Source: Opitutales bacterium (GTDB lineage: Bacteria; Verrucomicrobiota; Verrucomicrobiia; Opitutales; UBA2987). Taken from it: a stretch of DNA of 64,000 nucleotides. Positions 20,501 through 61,765 of this stretch are shown piece after piece; positions within the stretch are counted from its first letter, which is position 1, and every line of letters begins with the position of its first letter. The position numbers were made by a program, and so were the translations under genes. The notes beneath the pieces were generated by a model, which was given only the letters and a program-made list of their open reading frames with translations, was not told the DNA's origin and ran no database searches. The DNA lies in the NCBI GenBank assembly GCA_021772515.1, contig JAJFLU010000033.1:28106-92105 (forward strand). Reading direction: 5' to 3'.

Positions 20501-22452
20501 GCCTGCAACGCGACCGGGGAGGCGGCGAAAAACGCACCCTGAAAGGCGATGCCCTGCATGCGCAACTGCAGGTCGGGATCGGTGGCCACATCGCGGGCAA
20601 TCTGAAAGGCATCAAGATAGAAAAGTTTGATGTTCTTCTCCACCATGATCTTGCGATAATAGGGCGATATGCTCATCCAAACGGCCTCGGGCGAAGCCTG
20701 GTCGCTCTGGATGATGAAGATGCCACCCTCCTTCAGCCCGGCAAGGGCATTGGTATGCTGGAAGACGTTGGGATCGGGCGAAAGCACCACATCGACGTAG
20801 AAGTATTCGCAGTTGACCCGGATCGGTTCCGGCGCCGCCGAGAGGTAGTAAGTGGTCGGCTGTCCCTTCTTTTCCGAGCCATATTTGGGGTTGGCCTTGA
20901 TGTGGAAACCGAGCAGATCGAACAAGGTCATGGCCAGATTTTTGCCGGTTGTGATAGCGCCCCACCCTCCCACCGAGTGAAAACGCACCGTGATACTGCC
21001 CTCGGGCATGAGGTTGGGATTTTCGGAACCGTGGACGGCCAACTCCCGCACATTGGGGTAACCGGATTCGATATTTTCCTGGTGTATCTGCTGCTTTGGA
21101 CTGATGGGCTTGTCCCGCAGGAAATCGATTGAAAGGTAAAAGAACTTCTTGTGCGCTCCTTCCGGCAGCATGTTCTCGATTGCTCCGATAATTCCTTCGG
21201 GCTGTAAATCGCGGCTGCCCATGCCAAAGGAACCCGAATACAAGGCCGGCGCTTCCGAGGCGGATTTGTAGGTTTCGAGATCCGGGTACGGCTTCCGCCT
21301 GGGGTCGCGGCCGTTTTCCAGACAGCGGCTCATGGTGGCTCGGATCTCACGCATTACCGGCAGGTCAACGGCCAGCGGTTGGTCGAGACGCTCAAGAATG
21401 GCGACCGCTTTTTTGCCCTTCAAAATACGACTCACCCAGTCTGCCGGAAAGGGGCGGAACATGAGGAGATCGACCACGCCGACCTTTAAGCCTCGGGTTT
21501 CGCGTAAATAATCGGCAACCACTTCGGCGGATGGTATGATGCTGCCTTGACCGAGGATCAAGTAATCGGCGTCCTCGGCCCGGTAGGACATGACGCGGTC
21601 GTAGCGGCGTCCGGTCAATTCGTAAAACTCGTCGAAAGCCTGTTCGGACAGTTCTTCTATGTGATCGAAAAAGAAGGGCCGCTGGGCCGCCACGCTCTGC
21701 ATATAGGAATCCTGGTTCTGCACCAGCCCAGCCATCATAGGGTTGTCGACATCCCAAAGCTCGGGGATACGGCGTCGAGTGTCGCCGTAAATAATTCGCT
21801 GGGCCGGTGTCGGTGTGTCGATGATGTCCTCAGGGTGTCCGAGGTATTCCTCGATCAGCTCCCTTTCCGGAACCATGAGCGACTCGATCAGGTGGGTGGT
21901 GAGAAAGCCGTCCTGGGCAATGGCTCCGGGAGTCAGGGCCAACTCGGCAATGCGGTGCGAAATGATATTGAGATCGGCCGAGGACTGGGCGTCTTTGGCA
22001 AATAGCTGGAAGAAACCGGTGTCGTCGATGCAATGATAGTCGTCATGACCGGCGTGGACATTGAGGGTGGCCTTTGTCATGGCCCGCGCCCCGATATTGA
22101 GAACATAGGGGAGACGTTTGCCGACGGCCGCGTAGAGCGACTCGTGCATGTAGGCAATGCCCTGGCCGGAGGAGAAGTTGATGGCCCGGAGTCCGGTCAT
22201 GGAGAGTCCTGCGGTCACTGCGGCGGCGGCATGTTCGCCCTCCGGTTCAATAAAAATCAAGGGACGCCCGGAGATATTGACATGACCTTGGGCGGCGGCT
22301 TCGGCCCAATACTCTCCCATCTGGGTGGAGGGGGTGATGGGATAAGCGCCAGCGGCATCGCTCGACTCACGCTCACACATGATGACAGCCGTATTGCCAT
22401 CCAAAGCGGCTCGGCTTCCGGTATATTTGAATTTCTTCGCCTTAATCTTCAT
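17518..22452 (-). CDS. nifJ: Pyruvate:ferredoxin (flavodoxin) oxidoreductase, unusually long (1644 aa), with a fused C-terminal single-cluster ferredoxin module
   Basis: All PFOR hallmarks appear in order: YPITPST; GWGAITTGKN...KYGSEKKGQPT; CTACGNCYTVCP and CKGCMECVEVCD; GDGACLGCGEK; NATGCTSVWG; GGDGAMYDIG...LDTQVYSNTGGQ; and YATCQPEHG. An extra C-terminal CTSCDEC...C module follows. Confidence 0.9.
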   Translation of the reverse strand: MKIKAKKFKYTGSRAALDGNTAVIMCERESSDAAGAYPITPSTQMGEYWAEAAAQGHVNISGRPLIFIEPEGEHAAAAVTAGLSMTGLRAINFSSGQGIAYMHESLYAAVGKRLPYVLNIGARAMTKATLNVHAGHDDYHCIDDTGFFQLFAKDAQSSADLNIISHRIAELALTPGAIAQDGFLTTHLIESLMVPERELIEEYLGHPEDIIDTPTPAQRIIYGDTRRRIPELWDVDNPMMAGLVQNQDSYMQSVAAQRPFFFDHIEELSEQAFDEFYELTGRRYDRVMSYRAEDADYLILGQGSIIPSAEVVADYLRETRGLKVGVVDLLMFRPFPADWVSRILKGKKAVAILERLDQPLAVDLPVMREIRATMSRCLENGRDPRRKPYPDLETYKSASEAPALYSGSFGMGSRDLQPEGIIGAIENMLPEGAHKKFFYLSIDFLRDKPISPKQQIHQENIESGYPNVRELAVHGSENPNLMPEGSITVRFHSVGGWGAITTGKNLAMTLFDLLGFHIKANPKYGSEKKGQPTTYYLSAAPEPIRVNCEYFYVDVVLSPDPNVFQHTNALAGLKEGGIFIIQSDQASPEAVWMSISPYYRKIMVEKNIKLFYLDAFQIARDVATDPDLQLRMQGIAFQGAFFAASPVALQAGFSEEKLLEAIHNQLQHKFGAKGARVVQENMQVVKRGFDEVQEVAHGSITERKAGEKTATTEPPLPVMLKREPKSKSPASDIHRFWEQTGSFYARGMGTDSITDPFIGLGVMPAVTALFRDMTGIRFQHPEWIAENCTACGNCYTVCPDTAIPGLVNEVTQIFDTVVSRMRKQGKEVKHLSKAVRVMERHLRAIFAKAEETDNVTLMMDEAIQKTLKNEKLENGAETNGKLKKEFDLFREEISDFQFALSRPYFTVPEKKKKGAGGLLSITVNPYTCKGCMECVEVCDDDALRPITQTGESIEKLRQNWKFWLDLPNTPKKFIRVDNVEEGIGALETVLLDKRNYLSFTSGDGACLGCGEKTVVHLFVATVEALMQPRIDRHLAYLTELIEKLEKHIQLQLVKGINVGDPATFANVVEEMSGGDVTLASIAERLEQLTGGEPIDQDWLRRVTRSVGKLKNLKWKYIEGTTGRGRAKMGMVNATGCTSVWGSTYPFNPYPFPWANHLFQDPASMAMGVFEGHMAKMAEGFKAIRLAELELSGDYDPSIHDEFMTYFDWRKFSDEEWELCPPVVAMGGDGAMYDIGFQNLSRALSSGKPIKVLVLDTQVYSNTGGQACTSGFFGQISDMAQYGKAQKGKEEVRKEIGLIGMAHRTTYVMQSTIAHANHMIEGFIEGLKARRPALFNLYATCQPEHGIGDDMSANQAKLVVESRAYPLFRYNPDEGSRPEDCFELEGNPAVDQDWPTYTLNYLEDGDEKSMEIPMTFADFAITEVRFRKHFRLAPQDTWNENMLPLAEFLELSDDEREDFFPYVWSVNRKKELTRLLVAEPIVQSCEERRDFWTMLRAIARIGEKQPTTRADIEAEVKQELTGRITAGLLQLVGDRAAAVTALTQATPSSVATEGSPQGIGNGDYMAPWIDTEQCTSCDECIKINSAIFEYNENKKAFIKDGSAGSFKDLVKAAERCTAQVIHPGLPLDRSEKRIEQLIARAEKYN

Positions 22453-22515
22453 CGTGATAACTTTCTTTCACTTTCAATAAGAGGAGGATAATTTTTCTAA
22501 AAAATTGGTTTGAGA

Positions 22516-23391
22516 TCAGGTTGGCGCCTCGCGCAATGAGCCCTGGCGGATTATTTTGCGTGCCGCCCGTCCTTTCACGGTCCCTTTTTTGGCGTCGAGC
22601 CAAACGATGGCTCCAGTCGGACAACGCTGCGTCGCCTCCGCCGATTGGAAGCGGTTTTTAGTGTAATCGACCACCGGCAGATTACCCCGCATTTCAATCA
22701 GGCCTGGGGCGTCCATGGCGCAACGTGCGCAGGCGGTGCAGGCAACCTGGCAGTCATCCAGGATTTCATCGCCTTCCTCCTGAGAGCGGCAGGCCACCCA
22801 GAGCCGATGGCTTTGCGGGTGCAGGGAAAACAAGTCTTTGGGGCATGCCGTCACGCAGTCGCCACAGGCGGTGCATAGATCCTCGTCAACCACCGGCAGG
22901 TGGTGCCGGTCCATCGTAATGGCGTCGAAGTCGCAGGACACCGCGCAGTCATCCAGCCCCAGGCAGCCCCAAAAACAGCCCTTGCCGCCGCCCGCGACCA
23001 ACGTTGCCGCCGCGCAGGATTCGAGGCCCACGTAACGGGCATGATTGCGGGATACATTGGCGCCACCGGCACAGGCCAGCCTCGCTACACGCTTCTCCTC
23101 GGCCCCCACATCAACCCCAAGATAGGCGGCTATCAGGATGTGTTCTTCAGGCGGACTGACGGTGCACTTTCCCGGCAGCACAACGCCTTCGACCAATGCT
23201 TCGGCAAAAGGACGGCACCCCGGATAGCCGCAACCTCCGCAGTTGGTATGCGGGAGCATATCTTCGACCGCATCGATACGCGGATCCTCCTCAACATGCA
23301 GCCAGTGGTTAGCCACAACAAGGAGCGAGGCCAGAGCCAGTGTAAGCCCACCGATTGTGGCAACAGCGGTTAGGACTAGCATAGAGTTCAC
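22516..23391 (-). CDS. rnfB: Rnf complex subunit B (polyferredoxin type)
   Basis: An N-terminal TM helix is followed by CGGCGYPGCRPFAEAL. Several Fe-S Cys motifs follow (CTACGDCVTACP, CQVACTACARC, CPTGAI). Confidence 0.85.
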   Translation of the reverse strand: MNSMLVLTAVATIGGLTLALASLLVVANHWLHVEEDPRIDAVEDMLPHTNCGGCGYPGCRPFAEALVEGVVLPGKCTVSPPEEHILIAAYLGVDVGAEEKRVARLACAGGANVSRNHARYVGLESCAAATLVAGGGKGCFWGCLGLDDCAVSCDFDAITMDRHHLPVVDEDLCTACGDCVTACPKDLFSLHPQSHRLWVACRSQEEGDEILDDCQVACTACARCAMDAPGLIEMRGNLPVVDYTKNRFQSAEATQRCPTGAIVWLDAKKGTVKGRAARKIIRQGSLREAPT

Positions 23392-23789
23392 GGAAAATGA
23401 CGCAAAGTGCGGACGTTGGAAACGAGGAGGGAAGTTTGCCAGTCAAACGGAAAATAACACATTTCTAATATTTTTCTTTCTTAGTTGAATTCGATCTGTG
23501 CCAGATACTTCTAATTTTTTTGGCCGATTGTGAAAAAAGGGAGGTTAAATCGAGATTCCCCAGACGAGGGGCTTGAGTCTTTGAAAATATCGACCTGACA
23601 CCTCTCCTGTGGAGCTTCCCGCGTTCGACTGTATATTACCCCTTTAATTACGCTTTTGCAATTTTTTTCTTGGTATCTACCAATGGAATAGGCGGTAATT
23701 GCTATTCGTTGGGGCTGTCGTCCTTGGCCCGCGATGCGTGCAAGGCATAGGATATCGACCCCAATGAATGATGCCCTCCAGTTGAAGAT

Positions 23790-24278
23790 TCAACCGGCCA
23801 GTAGTCTTGTTCGGGTGAAGGGGATGAGCCCTCCGGCTTCGATAATTTCCTGGCGGGATTTGGGGAGGGGCACAATTTCGAAACTTTGTCCGGTGGTTTT
23901 GTTGATTGCCTGATTTTCGCTGATTTCCAATTCGTCTCCGGTTGAGGCTTCGATGTTTGGGGCGATCACTATGTCCAGTCCCAGATTGACCGCGTTTTGC
24001 AGGAAAATACGGGCGATACTTTTGGCCACAATGACCACTTCGTGACCTTTCAATGTAGAAACCGCTTGCTCGCGCGAGGAGCCACAGCCGAAGTTTTCAC
24101 CCGCCACGATAGCGCGCGCCTGGGGTTCGTCCGTTGAGAGCAACCGACCATTGAATTCGGGGTCGTCTATAAACGCAAACTGGGGCGTCTCGCTGGGAAG
24201 CACGGTGGCCATATAGCGACCGGGATAGATGATGTCGGTGGAAATATCGTCGCCAACAGTGAAGATTACTTTTGCCAT
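23790..24278 (-). CDS. Aconitase-family dehydratase small subunit (LeuD/HacB-like)
   Basis: From the internal ATG the sequence reads MAKVIFTVGDDISTDIIYPGRY...GENFGCGSSREQA. It starts 2 nt after the large-subunit stop. Confidence 0.8.
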   Translation of the reverse strand: MAKVIFTVGDDISTDIIYPGRYMATVLPSETPQFAFIDDPEFNGRLLSTDEPQARAIVAGENFGCGSSREQAVSTLKGHEVVIVAKSIARIFLQNAVNLGLDIVIAPNIEASTGDELEISENQAINKTTGQSFEIVPLPKSRQEIIEAGGLIPFTRTRLLAG

Positions 24279-24280
24279 GA

Positions 24281-25573
24281 TTAATTGTCTCCTTTCCGGG
24301 GATCGGTGATAACGCCGGTGACAGCCGAAGCTGCCGCCACGGCAGGTGAGCAAAGATAAACCGCTGCCGTGGGATTGCCCATGCGGCCCTTGAAATTGCG
24401 GTTTGTCGTCGATAGAGCAACTTCCCCATCTCCCAGTGCGCCTTCGTGAATCCCCAGACAGGGGCCGCATCCGGGATTCATGACCAACGCGCCAGCAGTC
24501 ATGAAATCGCCGATCAATCCCTTTCCCAGGGCCTGGGAGTAAATCCTGCCGGAGGCCGGGAAGACGAGCATGCGAGTGTTTTGGGAAACCTTTTTGCCCC
24601 GGATCATGCTGGCAGCCATTTCTAGGTCGTCGAGGCGACCGTTGGTGCAGGAGCCGATGACCACCTGGTGGATAGCGGTTCCGTGAACTTCGTCGATCGA
24701 TTTCACATTATCAACGGTATGCGGACAGGCGATTTGCGGCTCCAGTTTCGACACATCGATTTCGATTAGCTCGTCGTACTCGGCATCGGCGTCTGGAAAC
24801 ACCATTTCCAAAGAGTCTTCCACGCCCGCTTCTTCTTTTAGATAGCGGACAGTTTCATCATCCGCTGGCACGATACCCGCGGTAGCCCCGGCTTCAACCG
24901 ACATATTGCAGATCACGAGGCGACCGGAAGTGGACATTTTCCTGATTGTATCGCCGTGGAACTCGATCACCCGAAAGTTGGCGCCCTGGGCGCTGATTTT
25001 TCCTATGAGGTGAAGAATGAGATCCTTGGGGCCGACAAATTCCGGGAATTCACCGGTTACAATAACCTTGATGGTGGCGGGAACCTCTACGTTGAGGGCT
25101 TTACCCAATGCCCAGACGCTGGCCATCTCGGTGGCTCCTATACCGAACGAGAACGCGCCCAATGCGCCGTGGCTTGTGGTGTGGGAATCCGTTCCCACCA
25201 CTACGCAACCGGGGCGCACATAGCCCGATTCGGGCAGAATCTGGTGACAAATCCCGCCAACATCTCCACGGATGTCGTGAAATTTTCCAATGAACTGCTC
25301 CCTTACGAACTCGCGCACTTTTTTCTGATTACTGGCCGTTTTGGGAGATTCCGCCGGCACACGATGATCGAAGATAATGGCAATTTTCGAGGCGTCCCAA
25401 ACTTTCGGCTCCAGGGGCGTGCCCTCATAAATCTGAAGAAACTGGTTGATGACCAAGGCGCCGTTTTCGTGCGACATGGCAAGGTCGATCCTCGGCTCGA
25501 CTACATCTCCCGGTTTCAGGGCCGATTTCCCGGCGGCTTTTGCCAGGATTTTTTCAACTATTGTCATGCTCAT
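24281..25573 (-). CDS. Aconitase-family dehydratase large subunit (LeuC/HacA-like, about 430 aa type)
   Basis: Motifs include MTIVEKILA, GTDSHTTSHGALGAFSFGIGATE, and the cluster cysteines in IGSCTNGR and PGCGPCLG. Confidence 0.85.
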   Translation of the reverse strand: MSMTIVEKILAKAAGKSALKPGDVVEPRIDLAMSHENGALVINQFLQIYEGTPLEPKVWDASKIAIIFDHRVPAESPKTASNQKKVREFVREQFIGKFHDIRGDVGGICHQILPESGYVRPGCVVVGTDSHTTSHGALGAFSFGIGATEMASVWALGKALNVEVPATIKVIVTGEFPEFVGPKDLILHLIGKISAQGANFRVIEFHGDTIRKMSTSGRLVICNMSVEAGATAGIVPADDETVRYLKEEAGVEDSLEMVFPDADAEYDELIEIDVSKLEPQIACPHTVDNVKSIDEVHGTAIHQVVIGSCTNGRLDDLEMAASMIRGKKVSQNTRMLVFPASGRIYSQALGKGLIGDFMTAGALVMNPGCGPCLGIHEGALGDGEVALSTTNRNFKGRMGNPTAAVYLCSPAVAAASAVTGVITDPRKGDN

Positions 25574-25601
25574 TTGCGCTCCTTGTGTCTTTAGATTTCA
25601 A

Positions 25602-26795
25602 TTAAACAATCTTCGCTTTTTTAAAGGCTTCCGTTTCGGTGGGCGAGTAGCCGAGTTCATGAAGGATATCATCGGTATGGGCTGAGAGATCGGGAGGGGG
25701 CGATTCCACGGCGCCGGGGGTCTTCTCGAATTTTGCGGTCAGGTCGAAGAGCTTCAGGATTCCGATTCCCTCTTTGTGGATCGACCGTATAGTTTGACGA
25801 TGCTGAATCTGGGACGCCTGCAATGCCGCCTCAAGACTGAGTATTTCACCCGACGGAATCCCTTTGACATTGAGAGCGTCAACCCAGTGTTTGGTCGAAT
25901 TTTCCTTTAATTTGGTCTCCAATAGCGGAGTAAGTTCTTTCCGGTTTTTTTTCCGGGCATCACGCTGCTGAAAACGAGGATCGGTCTTCAATTCCGGAAC
26001 CCCCAAAACATCCGCAACCGCCTCCCATTGCTCCTGTTTGTTGGCGGCGATATTTATATAACCATCTTTGGTCAAAAATGTGCCCGAAGGAGCCGCCGTG
26101 AAGTTATCATTACCGAGAAGTTGAGGCTGTTTTCCCCCGATGAGAAGATTGGCCGCCACCCAACCCATGAGAGGCATGATGGAATCCAGCAAGGCAACGT
26201 CTATGGATTGTCCCTGGCCGGTTCTCTCCCGATGAAACAGGGCGCCAAGAATGGAAAAAGCAGCGTTCAATCCGCCAACCGTGTCACAAACAGGAAATCC
26301 ACAGCGCAGTGGATTCAGGCGCTCATCGCCATTGATGGCCATAACTCCGCTCAAACCCTGGATGATCTGGTCGTAGGCGGGCTTCATTGAGTCTGGGCCC
26401 GTCTGCCCGAACCCGGAAATGGCGCAATAGATGATCTGTGGATTGATTTCACTTAGATGATTGTAGGAGAGGCCCAGGCGCTCCATGACCCCGGGACGAA
26501 AATTTTCGACTACGACGTCTGCGGTTTCGGTCAGTTTTTTAAAAATTTCCCTACCCTCGGGTGCTTTCAGATTGAGGGTGAGCGACTTTTTATTCGCGTT
26601 CTGGGCCAGGAAGCTGGTGCCCATGAGTTTGTCATTCAGTTCGGGAACATTTCCCAGGCGGCGGGCCAGATCGCCCTCGCCCGGTCTCTCAATTTTAATG
26701 ACCTCGGCCCCCAGCAAAGCGAGGTGCATAGTGGCAAAAGGTCCGGCCAAAACGTTGGTCAAATCGAGAACCCTGATTCCAGACAGTATTTTCAT
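25602..26795 (-). CDS. Family III CoA-transferase (CaiB/BaiF/Frc type)
   Basis: From the internal ATG the sequence reads MKILSGIRVLDLTNVLAGPFATMHLALLGAEVIKIERPGEGD, the canonical N-terminus of class III CoA-transferases. Confidence 0.85.
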   Translation of the reverse strand: MKILSGIRVLDLTNVLAGPFATMHLALLGAEVIKIERPGEGDLARRLGNVPELNDKLMGTSFLAQNANKKSLTLNLKAPEGREIFKKLTETADVVVENFRPGVMERLGLSYNHLSEINPQIIYCAISGFGQTGPDSMKPAYDQIIQGLSGVMAINGDERLNPLRCGFPVCDTVGGLNAAFSILGALFHRERTGQGQSIDVALLDSIMPLMGWVAANLLIGGKQPQLLGNDNFTAAPSGTFLTKDGYINIAANKQEQWEAVADVLGVPELKTDPRFQQRDARKKNRKELTPLLETKLKENSTKHWVDALNVKGIPSGEILSLEAALQASQIQHRQTIRSIHKEGIGILKLFDLTAKFEKTPGAVESPPPDLSAHTDDILHELGYSPTETEAFKKAKIV

Positions 26796-26823
26796 AATGA
26801 AACCAAAAGTGAAAAAATAATAT

Positions 26824-27741
26824 TCAGCCAAACTCAGGAATCGGTCCCGACTTGTGGACATATCCTGCCATGTCGCGTCCGAAAAATCGACCCACATCGC
26901 GGGCGATTTCGATCAGTTTTCCCAGATTCACCTCTTTCCTGACATTCATACGCTGGAGCATGTGAACGAGATCCTCCGTGCAAACATTTCCACCGGCAAT
27001 CTTCGTAAACGGGCAGCCTCCCAATCCGGCAAAGGAGGATTCAAAGTATCTTACACCCATCTGGTAGGCGGCATAGCAATTGGCCAATGCGAGGCCATAG
27101 GTGTTGTGGAAATGGCAGGCCCATTCCGCTTCGCTGTCCAGGGAGGCAACGGCATTGAATAATTTCTCGACCTTATCGGGGGTGGCGTGGCCCGCGGTGT
27201 CGGCCAGGCTGATCGTCTTGTGTCCAGCTTCGAGAAATTTCCCGACCAACCCCAGAACCCGATCCATAGAAATTTCTCCTTCATAACCGCAGCCGAAAGC
27301 CGATTGAACGGAGACCTGCACCTTTTTCTTCTCCCTTTCGGCCTGGTCAGCCATAGCGATAATCCGCCCGGATGCCTCGGCAATCGACATTCCGGTATTT
27401 TTCCTGCTATGGGTTTCACTGGCGGATACACCCATGCAAAACATATCGACGCCGCAGGCCAATCCGCGCTCAAGACCCTTTTCGTTCAACACCAACCCCG
27501 AAAGCGTGACATTGGAGTGTTTGCTCCGGTGGTTTTTCAATTCGGAAAATAGCAGATCGGCATCCGCCATTTGGGGCACTCTGGCGGGGTGGACAAAGGA
27601 GCCGACCTGAACGATATCAAGGCCGCACTCGAGCAGTCCGTGAATCCATTTGAGTTTTTGCTCCGTCGGAACGGTTTGCTCTTCAAATTGCAACCCATCG
27701 CGGGGTCCTACTTCGTGAAGGACTAATTCGCGAGTTATCAC
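26824..27741 (-). CDS. HMG-CoA lyase-like (DRE-TIM metallolyase) acyl-CoA lyase
   Basis: HEVGPRDGLQ, the HFHNTYG-type metal site (CHFHNTYGLALAN) and GLGGCPF are present. Length is 305 aa. Confidence 0.85.
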   Translation of the reverse strand: MITRELVLHEVGPRDGLQFEEQTVPTEQKLKWIHGLLECGLDIVQVGSFVHPARVPQMADADLLFSELKNHRSKHSNVTLSGLVLNEKGLERGLACGVDMFCMGVSASETHSRKNTGMSIAEASGRIIAMADQAEREKKKVQVSVQSAFGCGYEGEISMDRVLGLVGKFLEAGHKTISLADTAGHATPDKVEKLFNAVASLDSEAEWACHFHNTYGLALANCYAAYQMGVRYFESSFAGLGGCPFTKIAGGNVCTEDLVHMLQRMNVRKEVNLGKLIEIARDVGRFFGRDMAGYVHKSGPIPEFG

Positions 27742-28865
27742 GAAGCCCGGACTTTCTCCCCGATGGCCTCGGCCATTTGCAAGGTCGTCGCCTGCCCACC
27801 CATGTCATAGGTCCGCACACGGCCTTCCATAATAACGGCGGCAACGGCTTCCTCCAGTCGATTGCCCATATCCTCCTCCCCAAGCCAATCGAGCATCATT
27901 TTGGCGGCCAAAATGGTCGCGATCGGGTTGACTTTCCAGAGGCCATCATATTTCGGGGCCGAACCGTGGGTGGGCTCGAATACCGCCATTTCCCGACCGA
28001 TGTTGCCCGAACAACCGAACCCGAGGCCACCCACCATCTGCGCAGCCAGATCGGAGATGATGTCGCCGTATAAATTCGGGGCCACGAGCACATCGTAATT
28101 GTGTGGGTTTTTCTGCAGCCACATACAAATGGCATCGATATTGGCGGAGTCCATGGGAATGTCCGGGTACTCTTTGGCAATTTCCCCAGCCTCCTCGAGG
28201 AAAAGGCCATCCGTTGCGCGAACAACATTCGCCTTGTGGACGACAGTTACCTTTTTACGTTTGTTTTCCCTGGCAAACTCGAATGCGGCCCGCAGAATAC
28301 CAACGGAACCTTTTCTGGTGTTTATTTTGCAGGAGATCGCATATTCATCGCCGGGTAAATCCTTGAAAGCAGAAAATGGGGGCGAAATTTTTTCAAGGAG
28401 ATCGGCCAACTCTGGAGGGACGGGGTTGAATTCGACTCCGGAATAGAGATCCTCGGTATTTTCCCGAAAAATGACCAGATCGATTTCCTCTTTGAAATTT
28501 AGCGGATTCCCGGCGTAGGATTTGCAGGGTCTCAAACAGGTGTAAAGGTCCAGCAACTGGCGCATCCGCACGATTGGTGAGCGATAAACGAGGCCTGTCC
28601 CTTGGAGCGCGGGGGCCAATTCGGCTGCGGCCGCCTTGGCTGGTTTCGAGGTTATCGCTCCGAACATGGCGGCATCGACGTTTTTCAGGAGATCGAGAGT
28701 TCGCTCCGGCAGGGCATCTCCCTCGTTTTGCCAGAATTCCCAGCCGATGTCTCCCGGTAAATACTCCGCCTCCAATCCGACGCCCTCCAGGACCAGTCTG
28801 GCGGCTGCCATAACCTCTTTGCCAATGCCGTCTCCAGGCAGCCAGGCGATTCGATATTTACTCAT
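27738..28865 (-). CDS. Isocitrate/isopropylmalate dehydrogenase family beta-decarboxylating dehydrogenase
   Basis: LPGDGIGKEV, RENTEDLYSG and NLYGDIISDLAAQMVGGLG are present. Its stop overlaps the start of the lyase gene. Confidence 0.85.
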   Translation of the reverse strand: MSKYRIAWLPGDGIGKEVMAAARLVLEGVGLEAEYLPGDIGWEFWQNEGDALPERTLDLLKNVDAAMFGAITSKPAKAAAAELAPALQGTGLVYRSPIVRMRQLLDLYTCLRPCKSYAGNPLNFKEEIDLVIFRENTEDLYSGVEFNPVPPELADLLEKISPPFSAFKDLPGDEYAISCKINTRKGSVGILRAAFEFARENKRKKVTVVHKANVVRATDGLFLEEAGEIAKEYPDIPMDSANIDAICMWLQKNPHNYDVLVAPNLYGDIISDLAAQMVGGLGFGCSGNIGREMAVFEPTHGSAPKYDGLWKVNPIATILAAKMMLDWLGEEDMGNRLEEAVAAVIMEGRVRTYDMGGQATTLQMAEAIGEKVRAS

Positions 28866-29070
28866 AATTCGCTGATACCGGTTAACAATACGCTGGTTTC
28901 AAAAATTGCATCAAACAAAGCGGACAAGAGCGCAGATTGCTCATTCAGGAATATACATCCAAAAAGAAAAGATACAAGTAACCGGATAAATTAACCCAAA
29001 AAAACCAAAGTGGACGGGTCTGAATTGACGGACGAGGCGATCCGGGATAGGTTGAAGGTTTAGAAAAAGT

Positions 29071-29979
29071 ATGGATTTGGCGGAATTTATTTTAAGGCAA
29101 TCCCCCATATTGATGGACGGAGCGATGGGCACAGAACTCGCAAATGCCGGACTTGAGATGGGCGGGCAAAACTGTATTTCCCATCCGAAAGAGGTCCTCG
29201 CTATTCATGAAAAATATTCCCGAATCGGGTGCGACCTCCTTTTAACCAACACCCTGACTATGAACAGGGTTTACATCGAAACCCATGGGTTGAATATCGA
29301 TGTTAAAAAAGTGAATTTGGCCGGGGCCAAACTCGCCAAATCCGCAGCGCGGCCAGGGCAATATGTGCTGGGGGACATCAGCTCGACGGGTCAAATGCTG
29401 GAGCCCTATGGAGAATTTACTGAAACGCAGTTCTGCGAAACCTTCAGGGAACAAGCCGAAACCCTGGCCGCTGGTGACGTGGACGGCTTTATTGTCGAGA
29501 CGATGTTCGACCTGCGCGAGACCCTGTGCGCCGTCCGCGCCTGCCGGGAAGCGGGTTCTTTGCCGGTCTTTGCTTCTCTCTCATTTCAAACTGCCGAACG
29601 CGAGGGCCGCACCATGATGGGCGACTGTGCTCGTGATATAGCGATTGCCTTGGCGAATGCCGAGGTTGCTGCGGTAGGGGCCAATTGCGGGGATATCGAT
29701 CCCCACGAGGCCGCCCGTATAGTGGAGATAATGAAGGATGCCGTCGATCTGCCCATTCTGGCGCAGCCGAATGCCGGACTTCCAAAGCTTATTAACGGCC
29801 AGACAATATTTGAAATGACACCAGATGAGTTTGCTAAGGGAATAGCGGCCTGTCTGCACGCCGGCGCCAGCCTGGTGGGAGGTTGCTGCGGCACAACACC
29901 GGAACATATCCAGTGTATCGCTAAACTTATTGAAAACTGGAAGTCCGGGCCGGCCAATGTGTCCGAACACGGGGATTAG
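29071..29979 (+). CDS. Stand-alone homocysteine S-methyltransferase-domain (Zn, thiol-methylating) protein
   Basis: ILMDGAMGTEL, GANCG and GGCCGTTPEHI form the three-Cys zinc site pattern of MetH N-domain/BHMT/MmuM-type enzymes. The stop TAG is formed at the MITE junction. Confidence 0.8.
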   Translation: MDLAEFILRQSPILMDGAMGTELANAGLEMGGQNCISHPKEVLAIHEKYSRIGCDLLLTNTLTMNRVYIETHGLNIDVKKVNLAGAKLAKSAARPGQYVLGDISSTGQMLEPYGEFTETQFCETFREQAETLAAGDVDGFIVETMFDLRETLCAVRACREAGSLPVFASLSFQTAEREGRTMMGDCARDIAIALANAEVAAVGANCGDIDPHEAARIVEIMKDAVDLPILAQPNAGLPKLINGQTIFEMTPDEFAKGIAACLHAGASLVGGCCGTTPEHIQCIAKLIENWKSGPANVSEHGD

Positions 29980-30251
29980 AACCTATCTCAAATTCGATGA
30001 TGATGATGCAGAGAGCAATTATGTGCTTGGAGCAAGGCGCGACGGGGCTTGCAGGGCTGGAAGCCCTGCTGACCCGTCGGAACGCTGCTCAAACTCATAA
30101 TTGCCTCTGTCCGAAGGATTTGTGCGGCACGGTAGCACCTGCGGCGTTGGTTTGCACCCGAAGGGCGTCAGCCCATCGGTATGCAAATCCGCCTGGCATC
30201 TGCCACCGTTGCGCTACAAACATCATTCATCCGCGAATTTGAGATAGGTTC
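29979..30251. mobile_element. 273-bp MITE-like element with 18-bp perfect terminal inverted repeats and flanking TA
   Basis: GAACCTATCTCAAATTCG (29979-29996) and CGAATTTGAGATAGGTTC (30234-30251) are perfect inverted repeats. TA sits on both sides (29977-78, 30252-53). The left about 70 nt recur at 53970-54047. No convincing ORF is present. Confidence 0.7.
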
Positions 30252-30254
30252 TAG

Positions 30255-31337
30255 TCAGTATCCGCAAACATCGAGCGCGGTTGAGAGGTGCAGTTCGAGT
30301 TTTTCTTCGGGCATATCCTCGACGTGCTCGATGGTGAATATTTTATTGCCACAATCGCTCAGAATGGACGAGTAACCGCCAATGAGTTCCTCTTTGCTCG
30401 CCCAGGCAAGATGCGCGGGAAGATTCACGAATGGCACCTTGTCTGGCCACAAACGCCGGGCCTCCCGTAATGAAACGTCGCCGATTGGAGGGATTGAAAC
30501 GGAATCGATTACCTGAAATGGCGAATCGGTTATTTCATCCTTCAAGTGTCCGAAAAGGCCGTCAAAATGAACGGCCAGGATTTTTCCGGTCCCCGAAAGG
30601 GCGGAGGAATAGATTTCGTAGATGGGCAAACAGTAATCCCGATAGTATCGCGGTGAAATGGTGTTGGTTATATTGTCGATGCAAAGGATATGTTCCGATG
30701 GACAACCAGCCGTGATTTCCGCTGCTTTCTCGTGGAATAGCCTTTGAGTCTCAAAATATTCCAGGCATTCAGCAATTTCATCGGCGATATCCAGCGCGAT
30801 TCGCTCGATCGATGCCAACTCGATCCATGCGCGTTGAAATGGAGTTTTGTCAACGACTCCGATCGTGTAGCCGGCGTCTCCCAGGGTATCGAGATCCCGC
30901 TCCATTTCAGTATAATTCGGGCGCAGGCGGTCGGTCATGGCGGCAAAGATGTAGTTGATCACCCGCCAGTCGGAAGGCTCTTTGACAAACGCACTTTCCA
31001 TCGATCCGGTAAGCAGTCCGATATCGGGGTTGTGACCGACCACCGAATGCACGGACCCGATGGGGGTTTCCAGAGTGTGGCGAGTTTTGCGGACACCCGC
31101 CTCGCGGTAATTGGTGCGCGAATAGGTGACAGTATCGACATCGGGATCGATGGCATGGTCGAAAAAGAACATTGGGCGGTAGGGCGGAACAATATGTGAG
31201 ATCGCCATGCCTCGCGCCGAAAGCCGCCGCACCCACCCGCCAGACGGACCCGAACGGACTCCATCTGCGGCTAAAACATTCGGCTTATCGGGTGTTTCGC
31301 CGTGCAGGACACAAAGGTGTCGCTCGCGAGGTGTCAT
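30255..31337 (-). CDS. Uroporphyrinogen-decarboxylase (URO-D) family protein, MtaA/CmuA-like methyltransferase candidate
   Basis: The N-terminus MTPRERHLCVLHGETPDKP resembles the MT2-type URO-D family start. The 360-aa protein carries VHFDG at the position where CoM methylases carry H-x-C-G, judged by an alignment by eye. Confidence 0.6.
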   Translation of the reverse strand: MTPRERHLCVLHGETPDKPNVLAADGVRSGPSGGWVRRLSARGMAISHIVPPYRPMFFFDHAIDPDVDTVTYSRTNYREAGVRKTRHTLETPIGSVHSVVGHNPDIGLLTGSMESAFVKEPSDWRVINYIFAAMTDRLRPNYTEMERDLDTLGDAGYTIGVVDKTPFQRAWIELASIERIALDIADEIAECLEYFETQRLFHEKAAEITAGCPSEHILCIDNITNTISPRYYRDYCLPIYEIYSSALSGTGKILAVHFDGLFGHLKDEITDSPFQVIDSVSIPPIGDVSLREARRLWPDKVPFVNLPAHLAWASKEELIGGYSSILSDCGNKIFTIEHVEDMPEEKLELHLSTALDVCGY

Positions 31338-60916: not shown

Positions 60917-61765
60917 GTGAACGCTGAATTTCAAAAGCAGAAAGCTCAGGATTTTCTCTTGCTTCACACTCGGGGGGATCTCCTCATCCTGCCCAATGTG
61001 TGGAATCCGATCGGCGCCCGGATTTTGCAAGCGAAGGGGTACCCTGCGGTAGCAACGGCCAGCGCTGCGATTTCCGCCAGTCTTGGTTATAGGGACGGAG
61101 AAAAGATCAGGCGCTCCACACTCATCGACCTCATTAGTCGTATTGCCGGCAGTGTTGAAATTCCGGTTACCGCCGACATCGAAAGCGGTTACGGCGATTC
61201 CATCTCAGAGCTGGAGGAGACGATATCTGAAGTGATCGATTCCGGTGTCATTGGCATCAACCTCGAAGACAGCCTGGAGGAAGGCGGAGCGCTGCGCCCG
61301 GTCGAGGGGCAATGCGAGAGGATTGCGGCGGTGAAACAGATTGCCGCCAGCCGGGGTCTGCCTCTGGTCGTAAATGCCCGGATTGATAGTTACCTGTCCT
61401 CCAGCTTTAAGGAAAAAGACGAGGCAACGGAAGATGCCGTATCGAGGGCCAATGCCTACTCTGACGCAGGGGCCGACTGTGTTTACCCAATTGGTCCCGG
61501 CGACGAGGCAACCGTCCGCGTACTTCGAGCCCGCATAGATTTGCCCATTAACATATTGGCGACACCGGAGGCTGCGACACTTTCGACATTGCAGGCAATC
61601 GGCGTCAATCGCGTCAGTTTCGGCCCCTTCGTCTTCAGGTCGGGCCTGAAGAAGTTCATTGACATCGCCGATCGCCTGAAAAGCAAAGGAGACTATTCCT
61701 GCTTCAGTGATATGCTATCGAAAGAACAGACCGAAGAATACCTGCTCGGCGGCCACGAAACCTAA
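60917..61765 (+). CDS. Isocitrate lyase / PEP mutase superfamily protein (2-methylisocitrate lyase-like)
   Basis: The start is GTG. LILPNVWNPIGARILQAKGYPAVATASAAIS...PVTADIESGYG...INLED is the PEP-mutase/ICL superfamily pattern. Confidence 0.8.
   Translation: MNAEFQKQKAQDFLLLHTRGDLLILPNVWNPIGARILQAKGYPAVATASAAISASLGYRDGEKIRRSTLIDLISRIAGSVEIPVTADIESGYGDSISELEETISEVIDSGVIGINLEDSLEEGGALRPVEGQCERIAAVKQIAASRGLPLVVNARIDSYLSSSFKEKDEATEDAVSRANAYSDAGADCVYPIGPGDEATVRVLRARIDLPINILATPEAATLSTLQAIGVNRVSFGPFVFRSGLKKFIDIADRLKSKGDYSCFSDMLSKEQTEEYLLGGHET

Follow-up and report, generated by a model that had tools for sequence, protein, structure and literature searches.

The 64,000-nucleotide stretch of an Opitutales bacterium genome analyzed here (the window; contig JAJFLU010000033.1, positions 28,106 to 92,105) carries five co-directional minus-strand genes spanning 28865-23790. 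Their products come from known enzyme families, and the operon encodes an uncharacterized, widely distributed pathway. We tentatively propose that it specifies a retro-alkylmalate module, which would cleave a 2-oxoacid, most likely 2-oxobutyrate, to pyruvate and an acetyl unit. The general scheme, in which a 2-oxoacid(n+1) plus CO2 and NADPH is interconverted with a 2-oxoacid(n) plus an acetyl unit, is probable. Given that scheme, cleavage is the somewhat likelier direction, and 2-oxobutyrate is the first choice of substrate, held with slightly less than even confidence. All pathway steps were assigned from family membership and comparative genomics.

In the proposed pathway, an NADP(H)-dependent dehydrogenase would reductively carboxylate the 2-oxoacid to a 3-alkylmalate, and a LeuCD-type Fe-S isomerase would turn this product into the 2-alkylmalate. 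A family III coenzyme A (CoA) transferase would then transfer CoA to it from acetyl-CoA, succinyl-CoA or a similar donor, and an enzyme of the 3-hydroxy-3-methylglutaryl-CoA (HMG-CoA) lyase type would cleave the CoA ester to acetyl-CoA and a 2-oxoacid one carbon shorter. The most likely intermediates would run from 2-oxobutyrate through (2R,3S)-3-methylmalate, citraconate, (R)-citramalate and (R)-citramalyl-CoA to pyruvate and acetyl-CoA. With acetyl-CoA as the donor, the net reaction would be 2-oxobutyrate + CO2 + NADPH to pyruvate + acetate. Once the pyruvate is oxidized, this would become 2-oxobutyrate + H2O to 2 acetate, which, unlike oxidation to propionate, would be redox-neutral. With methionine, threonine or propionyl-CoA as the sources of 2-oxobutyrate in view, an anaerobe would thus gain two acetates without net electron release. 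The chemistry should lie near equilibrium, and we propose that it runs mainly in the direction of cleavage. We chose this scheme because it is the only one in which every enzyme of either operon variant, that of the window or the one described below, acts in sequence.

Enzyme families of the operon

A preliminary description of the window reported a five-gene minus-strand layout with a 4-nt overlap and gaps of at most 28 nt, and the open reading frame (ORF) listing and the sequence confirmed this arrangement and the order of the genes. In the 5'-3' order of the operon, the junctions are -4, 28, 28 and 2 nt. The dehydrogenase gene (28865..27738, 375 aa) comes first, and its stop codon is overlapped by 4 nt by the lyase gene (27741..26824, 305 aa), which starts at a GTG within GTGA. 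The CoA-transferase (26795..25602) has 397 aa when counted from an ATG 28 nt past the lyase stop. After a further 28-nt gap comes the large isomerase subunit (25573..24281, 430 aa), followed at a distance of 2 nt by the small subunit (24278..23790, 162 aa). The same description had noted the lack of a LeuA/CimA-type synthase, and indeed neither the ORF listing nor profile searches revealed one in or beside the cluster, where the sole HMGL-family member is the 305-aa HMG-CoA-lyase-type protein. Families were called by Pfam and NCBIfam profile searches with equivalog cut-offs as the reference; none of the five proteins passed an equivalog cut-off.

The lyase belongs to PF00682 (HMGL-like, E 6e-43), matches solved HMG-CoA lyases at E 1e-59 and scores 290 bits with NF004283, the NCBIfam model for the HMG-CoA lyase subfamily, whose cut-off is 246. 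Its catalytic motifs GPRDGLQ, H-x-H and GLGGCP are intact and invariant across 120 relatives, and like HMG-CoA lyase it keeps all of the catalytic residues (Arg-Asp, His-x-His and the Cys loop). Unlike HMG-CoA lyase, it falls in a separate, tight clade of 61-77% identity that spans several phyla, with members labeled Bacteroidota, Eisenbacteria and others. Ordinary HMG-CoA lyases are at most 45% identical to it (37-45% among the matches listed in the genome-contig scan). Nor did we find the usual HMG-CoA lyase context of leucine catabolism or ketogenesis, since the gene is always linked to, or co-occurs with, the dehydrogenase and the LeuCD-type isomerase. As an enzyme of the DRE-TIM type, it would interconvert a 2-alkylmalyl-CoA, such as citramalyl-CoA, with acetyl-CoA and a 2-oxoacid.

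The CoA-transferase is a family III enzyme (PF02515, CoA_transf_3, E 1e-122) that would form the 2-alkylmalyl-CoA from a 2-alkylmalate and an acyl-CoA donor. Among solved structures, human succinate-hydroxymethylglutarate CoA-transferase (SUGCT, E 1e-80) comes closest to it, and all NCBIfam equivalogs for this protein scored far under their cut-offs. In Chloroflexus aurantiacus, the (R)-citramalyl-CoA lyase Ccl, an HMGL-family enzyme, is encoded next to the family III succinyl-CoA:(R)-citramalate CoA-transferase Sct. The lyase and CoA-transferase genes of the window, 28 nt apart, resemble Ccl/Sct in their families and their adjacency. Unlike Ccl/Sct, they form the middle part of a five-gene operon, with a decarboxylating dehydrogenase gene before them and LeuCD-type isomerase genes after them, and the carriers are non-phototrophic anaerobes. 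Neither Ccl nor Sct figured among the solved structures matched by the two proteins.

Two other roles for this pair were rejected. Action on free HMG is excluded because HMG lacks the alpha-hydroxy-carboxylate that an aconitase-type isomerase requires of its substrate. Splitting of a 3-alkylmalate to glyoxylate and an acyl unit would turn the isomerase or the dehydrogenase into a side branch. Separately, two loci (L098:10001-14425 and L099:7016-11440) encode a lyase 67% identical to that of the window and a CoA-transferase, followed by a 700-aa fused protein resembling major facilitator superfamily transporters and spermidine synthase, with no isomerase at that place. In both, no dehydrogenase gene precedes the lyase gene, and an MttB-type methyltransferase and a corrinoid protein are encoded upstream.

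The dehydrogenase (PF00180, Iso_dh, E 2e-85) belongs to the family of isopropylmalate (IPMDH), isocitrate (ICDH) and homoisocitrate (HICDH) dehydrogenases, and it is of the NADP-type, beta-decarboxylating kind. It would interconvert a 3-alkylmalate with a 2-oxoacid and CO2. Its closest solved relatives are an NAD-dependent isocitrate dehydrogenase (6LKY) and the homoisocitrate dehydrogenase of T. thermophilus. The HGSAPKY segment resembles the Lys344/Tyr345 pair of NADP-ICDH, a signature of NADP-type cofactor use. The protein also has two insertions, of 13 and 30 residues.

The large isomerase subunit is an archaeal-type LeuC/HacA protein of the Fe-S (de)hydratase-isomerases (PF00330, Aconitase, E 3.5e-100), with the three cluster cysteines present in GSCTN and CGPC. 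It is 69-81% identical to its orthologues across all operon variants. The small subunit is of the LeuD/HacB type (PF00694, Aconitase_C), scores at the cut-off of LEUD_arch, and has as its closest solved relative the small subunit of the M. jannaschii isopropylmalate/citramalate isomerase (3VBA).

Related isomerases also occur in other settings. At three loci on contigs that are probably archaeal (L141, L148 and L169), genes next to GatD/GatE encode a large subunit that shares 70-74% identity with the window copy and a small subunit that shares 64-67% and has the same YMAT recognition loop. At the level of sequence, this hints at exchange of the isomerase between archaea and bacteria. In an Eisenbacteria metagenome-assembled genome (MAG; genome G042, contig C172, loci L211/L205), genes for a citrate synthase, an archaeal-type LeuC/HacA-like large subunit of 419 aa and an NADP-ICDH are adjacent, and a small aconitase of the two-subunit type may serve the tricarboxylic acid (TCA) branch there.

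Operon variants and the direction of the pathway

For comparison, 80 metagenome loci were kept, and the sequence 5' of the large-subunit gene was readable in 38. About 25 loci were of type A, with the CoA-transferase gene directly 5' of the large subunit as in the window, and seven were of type B, in which the order is dehydrogenase, a 310-aa protein, large subunit and small subunit. At three loci, the same protein (304-310 aa) was followed by the two subunits, with no dehydrogenase nearby. Five loci had other arrangements, three of them adjoining GatD/GatE and probably archaeal. Among 31 loci sampled from one Bacteroidota class, 19 were of type A and four of type B; at the remaining eight, the isomerase genes stood alone.

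The 310-aa protein is a member of the phosphoenolpyruvate (PEP) mutase/isocitrate lyase (ICL) superfamily and scores 220 bits against PrpB, below the cut-off of 354. The best match among solved structures is petal death protein, a 2-alkylmalate lyase (E 2e-50); methylisocitrate lyases (PrpB), oxaloacetate acetylhydrolase and 2,3-dimethylmalate lyase rank next. Petal death protein cleaves (2R)-alkylmalates to a 2-oxoacid and acetate or propionate, and the known activity of ICL-superfamily lyases is cleavage. The other genes of type B are orthologous to those of type A, and the specificity motifs of the dehydrogenase and the small subunit are the same in all operon types. No HMG-lyase homologue was found in four type-B genomes at E <= 1e-20. 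Therefore, replacement of the lyase and CoA-transferase by an ICL-family lyase is, as judged from sequence, a true non-orthologous displacement. Because a free-acid lyase and the CoA pair, with acetyl-CoA as donor, give the same net reaction, the replaced step would be the C-C cleavage of a 2-alkylmalate. The type-B operon, which is not that of the window, resembles DmdAB and Dml of nicotinate fermentation in pairing a LeuCD-type hydratase/isomerase with a lyase of the ICL/PEP-mutase superfamily. Unlike DmdAB and Dml, petal death protein and the methylisocitrate lyase systems, it adds a decarboxylating dehydrogenase.

Two further observations concern these genes. At a distance of 32 kb from the operon, the window itself encodes a PEP-mutase-family protein (60917-61765, plus strand, 282 aa, PF13714 with 260 bits) that shares only about 25% identity with the type-B lyase. 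The genome has three members of this family, and the PrpB of its prpBCD cluster is another of them. In three Bacteroidota genomes (L225:7494-8996, L230:8285-9238 and L222), an insert of about 1.8 kb between the lyase and CoA-transferase genes encodes a 315-aa ORF, accompanied in one case by a 159-aa ORF, and Pfam gave no match for these or for several single neighbors of the module.

Genomes with a split arrangement retained the dehydrogenase. Seven of the eight genomes with isolated isomerase genes were tested, and each of the seven encoded a dehydrogenase 72-75% identical to the window copy, which in five of them adjoins a lyase 56-60% identical to the window lyase. Because the dehydrogenase is kept when the genes are split over two loci, it co-occurs with the module in the absence of synteny, which indicates functional coupling. 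Every operon type for which the sequence reached far enough had the dehydrogenase, and so did each of the 11 genomes of the split or ICL-lyase kind that were tested.

These results bear on the route considered in the preliminary description, in which an external citramalate, citraconate or 3-methylmalate would be taken up, isomerized, activated and cleaved. The isomerase, CoA-transferase and lyase would suffice for such a route, which would resemble the dimethylmalate dehydratase and dimethylmalate lyase of nicotinate fermentation, and the three loci with only an ICL-family lyase and both isomerase subunits would fit it as well. Such a route would relegate the dehydrogenase to a side branch, yet this enzyme accompanies the others in every operon type for which the sequence suffices. 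In addition, no regulator and no transporter of a recognized family recurred next to the module in about 120 loci; the one recurrent protein with 6-8 predicted transmembrane spans (seven loci) belongs to no family. Catabolism of an external acid is therefore improbable. Cleavage of a citramalyl-CoA-type ester to a 2-oxoacid and acetyl-CoA, the other part of the earlier proposal, remains the best reading of the lyase/CoA-transferase pair and is reinforced by the alkylmalate-lyase-type enzyme of type B. The external-dicarboxylate part is not supported, because an ever-present dehydrogenase would have no role in it.

We next considered whether the operon could be biosynthetic. The source genome (3.85 Mb, 63 contigs, 93.8% complete) encodes, elsewhere, LeuA (contig C13), CimA (C40, beside thrC), LeuB (C49), bacterial-type LeuC/LeuD (C45), AcnA (C38) and NADP-ICDH (C35). 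It also has two citrate-synthase-family genes, one of them inside a prpB-prpC-prpD cluster whose PrpB is on contig C15; no methylmalonyl-CoA mutase was found in it. Since separate LeuA, CimA, LeuB, LeuCD, AcnA and ICDH are present, the operon is an extra set. This supports the earlier statement that it is not an amino-acid biosynthesis operon, and the concern that its genes might be the only leuBCD copies of the genome is answered by the LeuB and LeuC/LeuD found on C49 and C45.

A Bacteroidota MAG of 4.1 Mb that has the operon (G041, which holds locus L013) yielded no LeuA/CimA, LeuB, second LeuC, IlvC or IlvD, and its only other members of these families are AcnA and NADP-ICDH. In one Bacteroidota class, 23 genomes with the module were checked for IlvD, which was found in 8 and not in the other 15, and a class-wide sample gave 28 of 121 genomes with IlvD; incompleteness of MAGs qualifies each single gene absence, not the overall IlvD pattern. 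Because the module is found regardless of IlvD, it is independent of branched-chain amino-acid synthesis. Thus, unlike a canonical leucine/isoleucine operon, these genes are not the only copies, coexist with canonical genes, and also occur in genomes in which IlvC and IlvD were not found.

The operon nevertheless shares its isomerase and beta-decarboxylating dehydrogenase families, and its proposed intermediates, with the CimA-LeuCD-LeuB and LeuA-LeuCD-LeuB pathways. It differs from them in having no synthase, with a CoA-transferase and lyase or an ICL-family lyase instead, in its NADP-type dehydrogenase and in the proposed reverse direction. A module running forward would be a thioester-conserving stand-in for citramalate or isopropylmalate synthase, making 2-oxobutyrate (for isoleucine, or for propionyl-CoA via the oxidoreductase that adjoins some modules, described below) or 2-oxoisocaproate. 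With the thioester kept, the reactions should be reversible in principle, oxidative decarboxylation is usual for this dehydrogenase family, and the VorB-type neighbor could consume the 2-oxoacid product. We regard forward operation as unlikely. The source genome already has CimA, LeuA, LeuB and LeuCD, and most carriers in the Bacteroidota class lack IlvD, one of them also IlvC and LeuA/CimA/LeuB, which leaves no possible isoleucine or leucine synthesis there. Furthermore, the CoA pair is exchanged for an ICL-family free-acid lyase in type B, and the condensation of free acetate with a ketoacid, for which the energies of the citrate synthase reaction and of thioester hydrolysis lead us to an estimate of about 0 kJ/mol at 1 M, would be unfavorable at millimolar concentrations. 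Cleavage is preferred because the family of the variant lyase cleaves, because free-acetate condensation is unfavorable and because a biosynthetic need is absent.

Specificity motifs, neighboring genes and the substrate

The candidates for the substrate differ in the side chain that the enzymes must accept. Asn115 of ICDHs binds the gamma-carboxylate of isocitrate, and Arg85 of T. thermophilus HICDH serves the distal carboxylate. The YRSPIVRMRQ motif of the dehydrogenase is invariant in the clade and keeps the equivalent of E. coli ICDH Ser113. Throughout the clade, Ile occupies the Asn115 position and Val the Arg85 position, and this Ile-Val pair sits where IPMDH has Leu-Leu. In the small subunit, the recognition loop is YMAT, compared to YLVY in the 3VBA enzyme and YLRT in M. 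jannaschii homoaconitase, in which the Arg of the loop binds the distal carboxylate. The surrounding motif YPGR[YFH]MAT is invariant in all operon variants. Together, these residues point to a substrate with a small, uncharged side chain, as far as motifs can tell.

A citrate-cleaving branch of a reductive TCA cycle, from 2-oxoglutarate through isocitrate, citrate and citryl-CoA to oxaloacetate and acetyl-CoA, would suit the ICDH-like Arg-Ser and Lys-Tyr motifs of the dehydrogenase. Citryl-CoA would be a close analogue of HMG-CoA, and PFOR-Rnf genes and a KorAB-type oxidoreductase, the latter about 9 kb from the operon, also lie in the window. This branch is very improbable, since the entire clade has Ile in place of Asn115 and the small-subunit loop contains no Arg. 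The operon also differs from TCA isocitrate dehydrogenase and aconitase in that AcnA and NADP-ICDH are encoded elsewhere in the genome, along with its two citrate-synthase-family genes.

The main rival is 2-oxoadipate derived from lysine, processed by the same mechanism and in the same direction. Homoisocitrate, homocitrate and homocitryl-CoA would lead to 2-oxoglutarate and acetyl-CoA, as in a reversed upper aminoadipate pathway. The best-scoring profile models for the dehydrogenase and isomerase are indeed those of the upper alpha-aminoadipate/coenzyme B pathway (HacAB, AksF/HICDH). The dehydrogenase scored highest against AksF2 (336 bits, cut-off 540), compared to 192 bits for leuB (cut-off 353). 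The large subunit exceeded the cut-offs of PRK00402 (552 bits) and hacA_fam (525 bits) and scored 494 against HacA_Meth (cut-off 550) versus 457 against LEU2 (cut-off 611). The small subunit reached 115 against HacB2 (cut-off 230) and 105 against leud (cut-off 246). In addition, T. thermophilus homoisocitrate dehydrogenase is among the top solved relatives of the dehydrogenase, and SUGCT, the nearest solved CoA-transferase, handles glutarate and HMG.

On the other side, every homo(iso)citrate model score lies below its equivalog cut-off, the cluster has no synthase, and the arginines for the distal carboxylate in HICDH and M. jannaschii homoaconitase are replaced by Val and Ala, respectively, the latter not decisively for the reason given below. 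No lysine gene recurred among the neighbors of about 120 clustered loci, nor did either of two families that we examined, the saccharopine dehydrogenase and AlaDh_PNT families; proteins of both from the source genome, used as BLAST queries, found no relative in 86 loci. Of 33 genomes with the module, 17 encode the saccharopine-dehydrogenase-family domain PF16653; the four type-B genomes are not among them, and the domain is never adjacent to the module. The two AlaDh_PNT proteins of the source genome are alanine dehydrogenase and PntA, and its single PF03435 protein, which is unassigned, has counterparts in congeners that lack the module. Finally, the oxidoreductase adjacent to some modules is of the VorB type and not of the KorA type. 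We therefore hold 2-oxoadipate to be a rather unlikely substrate, albeit the one to be taken most seriously after 2-oxobutyrate.

Genes next to the module provide further evidence on the substrate. Neighbor clustering covered about 120 loci. At least 10 loci have a four-subunit 2-oxoacid:ferredoxin oxidoreductase next to the module; the arrangement varies, and in one case it is convergent. Its alpha subunit passes the cut-off of the VorB subfamily (555 versus 399 bits) and not those of KorA and PorA. A pyridoxal-phosphate enzyme adjoins the module in six loci, and its top 19 solved relatives are methionine gamma-lyases, enzymes that make 2-oxobutyrate.

The VorB-type neighbor could equally be taken to indicate the leucine skeleton. 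In that case, 2-oxoisocaproate, CO2 and NADPH would yield 3-isopropylmalate, then 2-isopropylmalate and its CoA ester, and finally 2-oxoisovalerate and acetyl-CoA, with the 2-oxoisovalerate feeding the oxidoreductase, whose alpha subunit falls in the 2-oxoisovalerate (VorB) subfamily. The Ile-Val pair in place of the Leu-Leu of IPMDH, the isopropylmalate/citramalate isomerase as nearest solved relative of the small subunit, and the peptidase genes that are common around the module would all agree with this substrate. The gamma-lyase-like neighbor suggests 2-oxobutyrate instead, and citramalyl-CoA is the sole alkylmalyl-CoA for which an HMGL-family lyase is precedented. Beyond redox balance, the route would bring no gain over direct oxidative decarboxylation. 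Its probability is accordingly low, similar to that of the external-acid route. We favor 2-oxobutyrate and citramalate because of the loop and segment motifs, the VorB-type and gamma-lyase neighbors, and the Ccl/Sct precedent of Chloroflexus.

Several points weigh against 2-oxobutyrate cleavage. Oxidative decarboxylation is the usual direction of NADP-type enzymes in the dehydrogenase family. The dehydrogenase and the isomerase score slightly higher on the methanogen homoisocitrate dehydrogenase and homoaconitase models than on the leucine models, and SUGCT, the nearest solved relative of the CoA-transferase, acts on C5/C6 dicarboxylates. An Arg is likewise missing from the loop of the small subunit in P. 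horikoshii (1V7L, loop YNLT), and that enzyme reportedly has dual specificity; the missing Arg therefore does not exclude homoaconitate. With CimA and a methylcitrate cluster, the source genome could make or remove 2-oxobutyrate without obvious need for the module. The oxidoreductase and gamma-lyase evidence comes largely from related Bacteroidota lineages, which as kin are not independent, and neither gene adjoins the operon in the window. Moreover, we know of no enzyme activity for any member of the clade. A promiscuous module is possible.

Genomic setting, distribution and implications

In the window, the operon is flanked by rnfB (22516-23391) and by a divergent homocysteine S-methyltransferase gene (29071-29979), from which it is separated by an intergenic region of about 205 nt (28866..29070). 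No sigma-70-like site was found in 28866..29070. Promoter and terminator scans gave results no higher than shuffle expectation and nothing convincing, an Rfam search of 22000-30500 at E <= 1 produced no match, and no regulator gene is adjacent to the operon. A corrinoid methyltransferase island adjoins it.

Other neighbors were seen at particular loci. At L012/L013:15500-19860, downstream of the operon and past Usp and hemerythrin genes, are an NfnAB-like pair (DHODB_Fe-S_bind/NAD_binding_1 and Fer4_20/Pyr_redox_2 domains), ack and pta. This stretch is a context of ferredoxin-to-NADPH and acetyl-CoA-to-ATP conversion. The recurrent membrane protein mentioned above, of about 291 aa with 6-8 predicted transmembrane spans and no Pfam family, is encoded directly 3' of the small subunit in seven metagenome loci (L137:10568-11455, L132, L139, L145, L162, L180 and L182) and may be a transporter tied to the module. 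Small conserved ORFs lie between the VorB-type oxidoreductase and dehydrogenase genes at L100:7650-8812 and at the equivalent places in L102, L107 and L152. One encodes 82 aa, another 70-83 aa with resemblance to rubrerythrin, and a third a protein of about 195 aa that has four spans and no family. OsmC and HemN genes were found 3' of the operon in 8-11 loci.

Comparison of genome neighborhoods, which the preliminary description had recommended, showed that the operon recurs in other phyla. All five genes, in identical order, are found in the Bacteroidota MAG, in a MAG of Eisenbacteria and on several metagenome contigs, and the proteins of Bacteroidota, Eisenbacteria and the source genome share 61-77% identity. 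Because the same gene order recurs in other phyla, the grouping is not a chance juxtaposition. A metagenome scan with clade-specific small-subunit motifs gave at least 600 matches, and the small subunit is encoded in 31 of the 301 species genomes from the class to which the Bacteroidota MAG belongs. Among relatives of the source organism, the operon was found in one of four congeners and in none of 36 other members of the same family or order. This patchy occurrence suggests that the operon has spread laterally. Literature searches turned up no description of this gene combination, of "homocitryl-CoA" or of a reverse citramalate route.

Joined to the VorB-type oxidoreductase, the module could conceivably form a doubly CO2-fixing route, from propionyl-CoA through 2-oxobutyrate, 3-methylmalate and citramalate to pyruvate and acetyl-CoA, which we regard as a long shot. 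From textbook formation energies, we computed a standard free energy change of about -28 kJ/mol for propionate + HCO3- + H2 to 2 acetate + H2O. Syntrophic propionate oxidation lies at about +76 kJ/mol. If this route existed, H2 or ferredoxin would drive the conversion of propionate and CO2 into two acetates, which would be an unrecognized propionate sink in anoxic sediments and biofilms and possibly a segment of a new carbon-fixation cycle.

Automatic annotation labels these genes leuB/leuC/leuD, HMG-CoA lyase and CaiB, which inflates predicted leucine prototrophy. If the proposed 2-oxobutyrate cleavage is correct, predicted fermentation balances would change as well, with acetate replacing propionate as the product of threonine and methionine and with electrons being consumed. 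The two interchangeable cleavage systems, one CoA-dependent and the other a free-acid system of the ICL type, offer biochemists a handle on the pathway. A common and apparently mobile five-gene cassette would then encode a pathway that is absent from metabolic maps.

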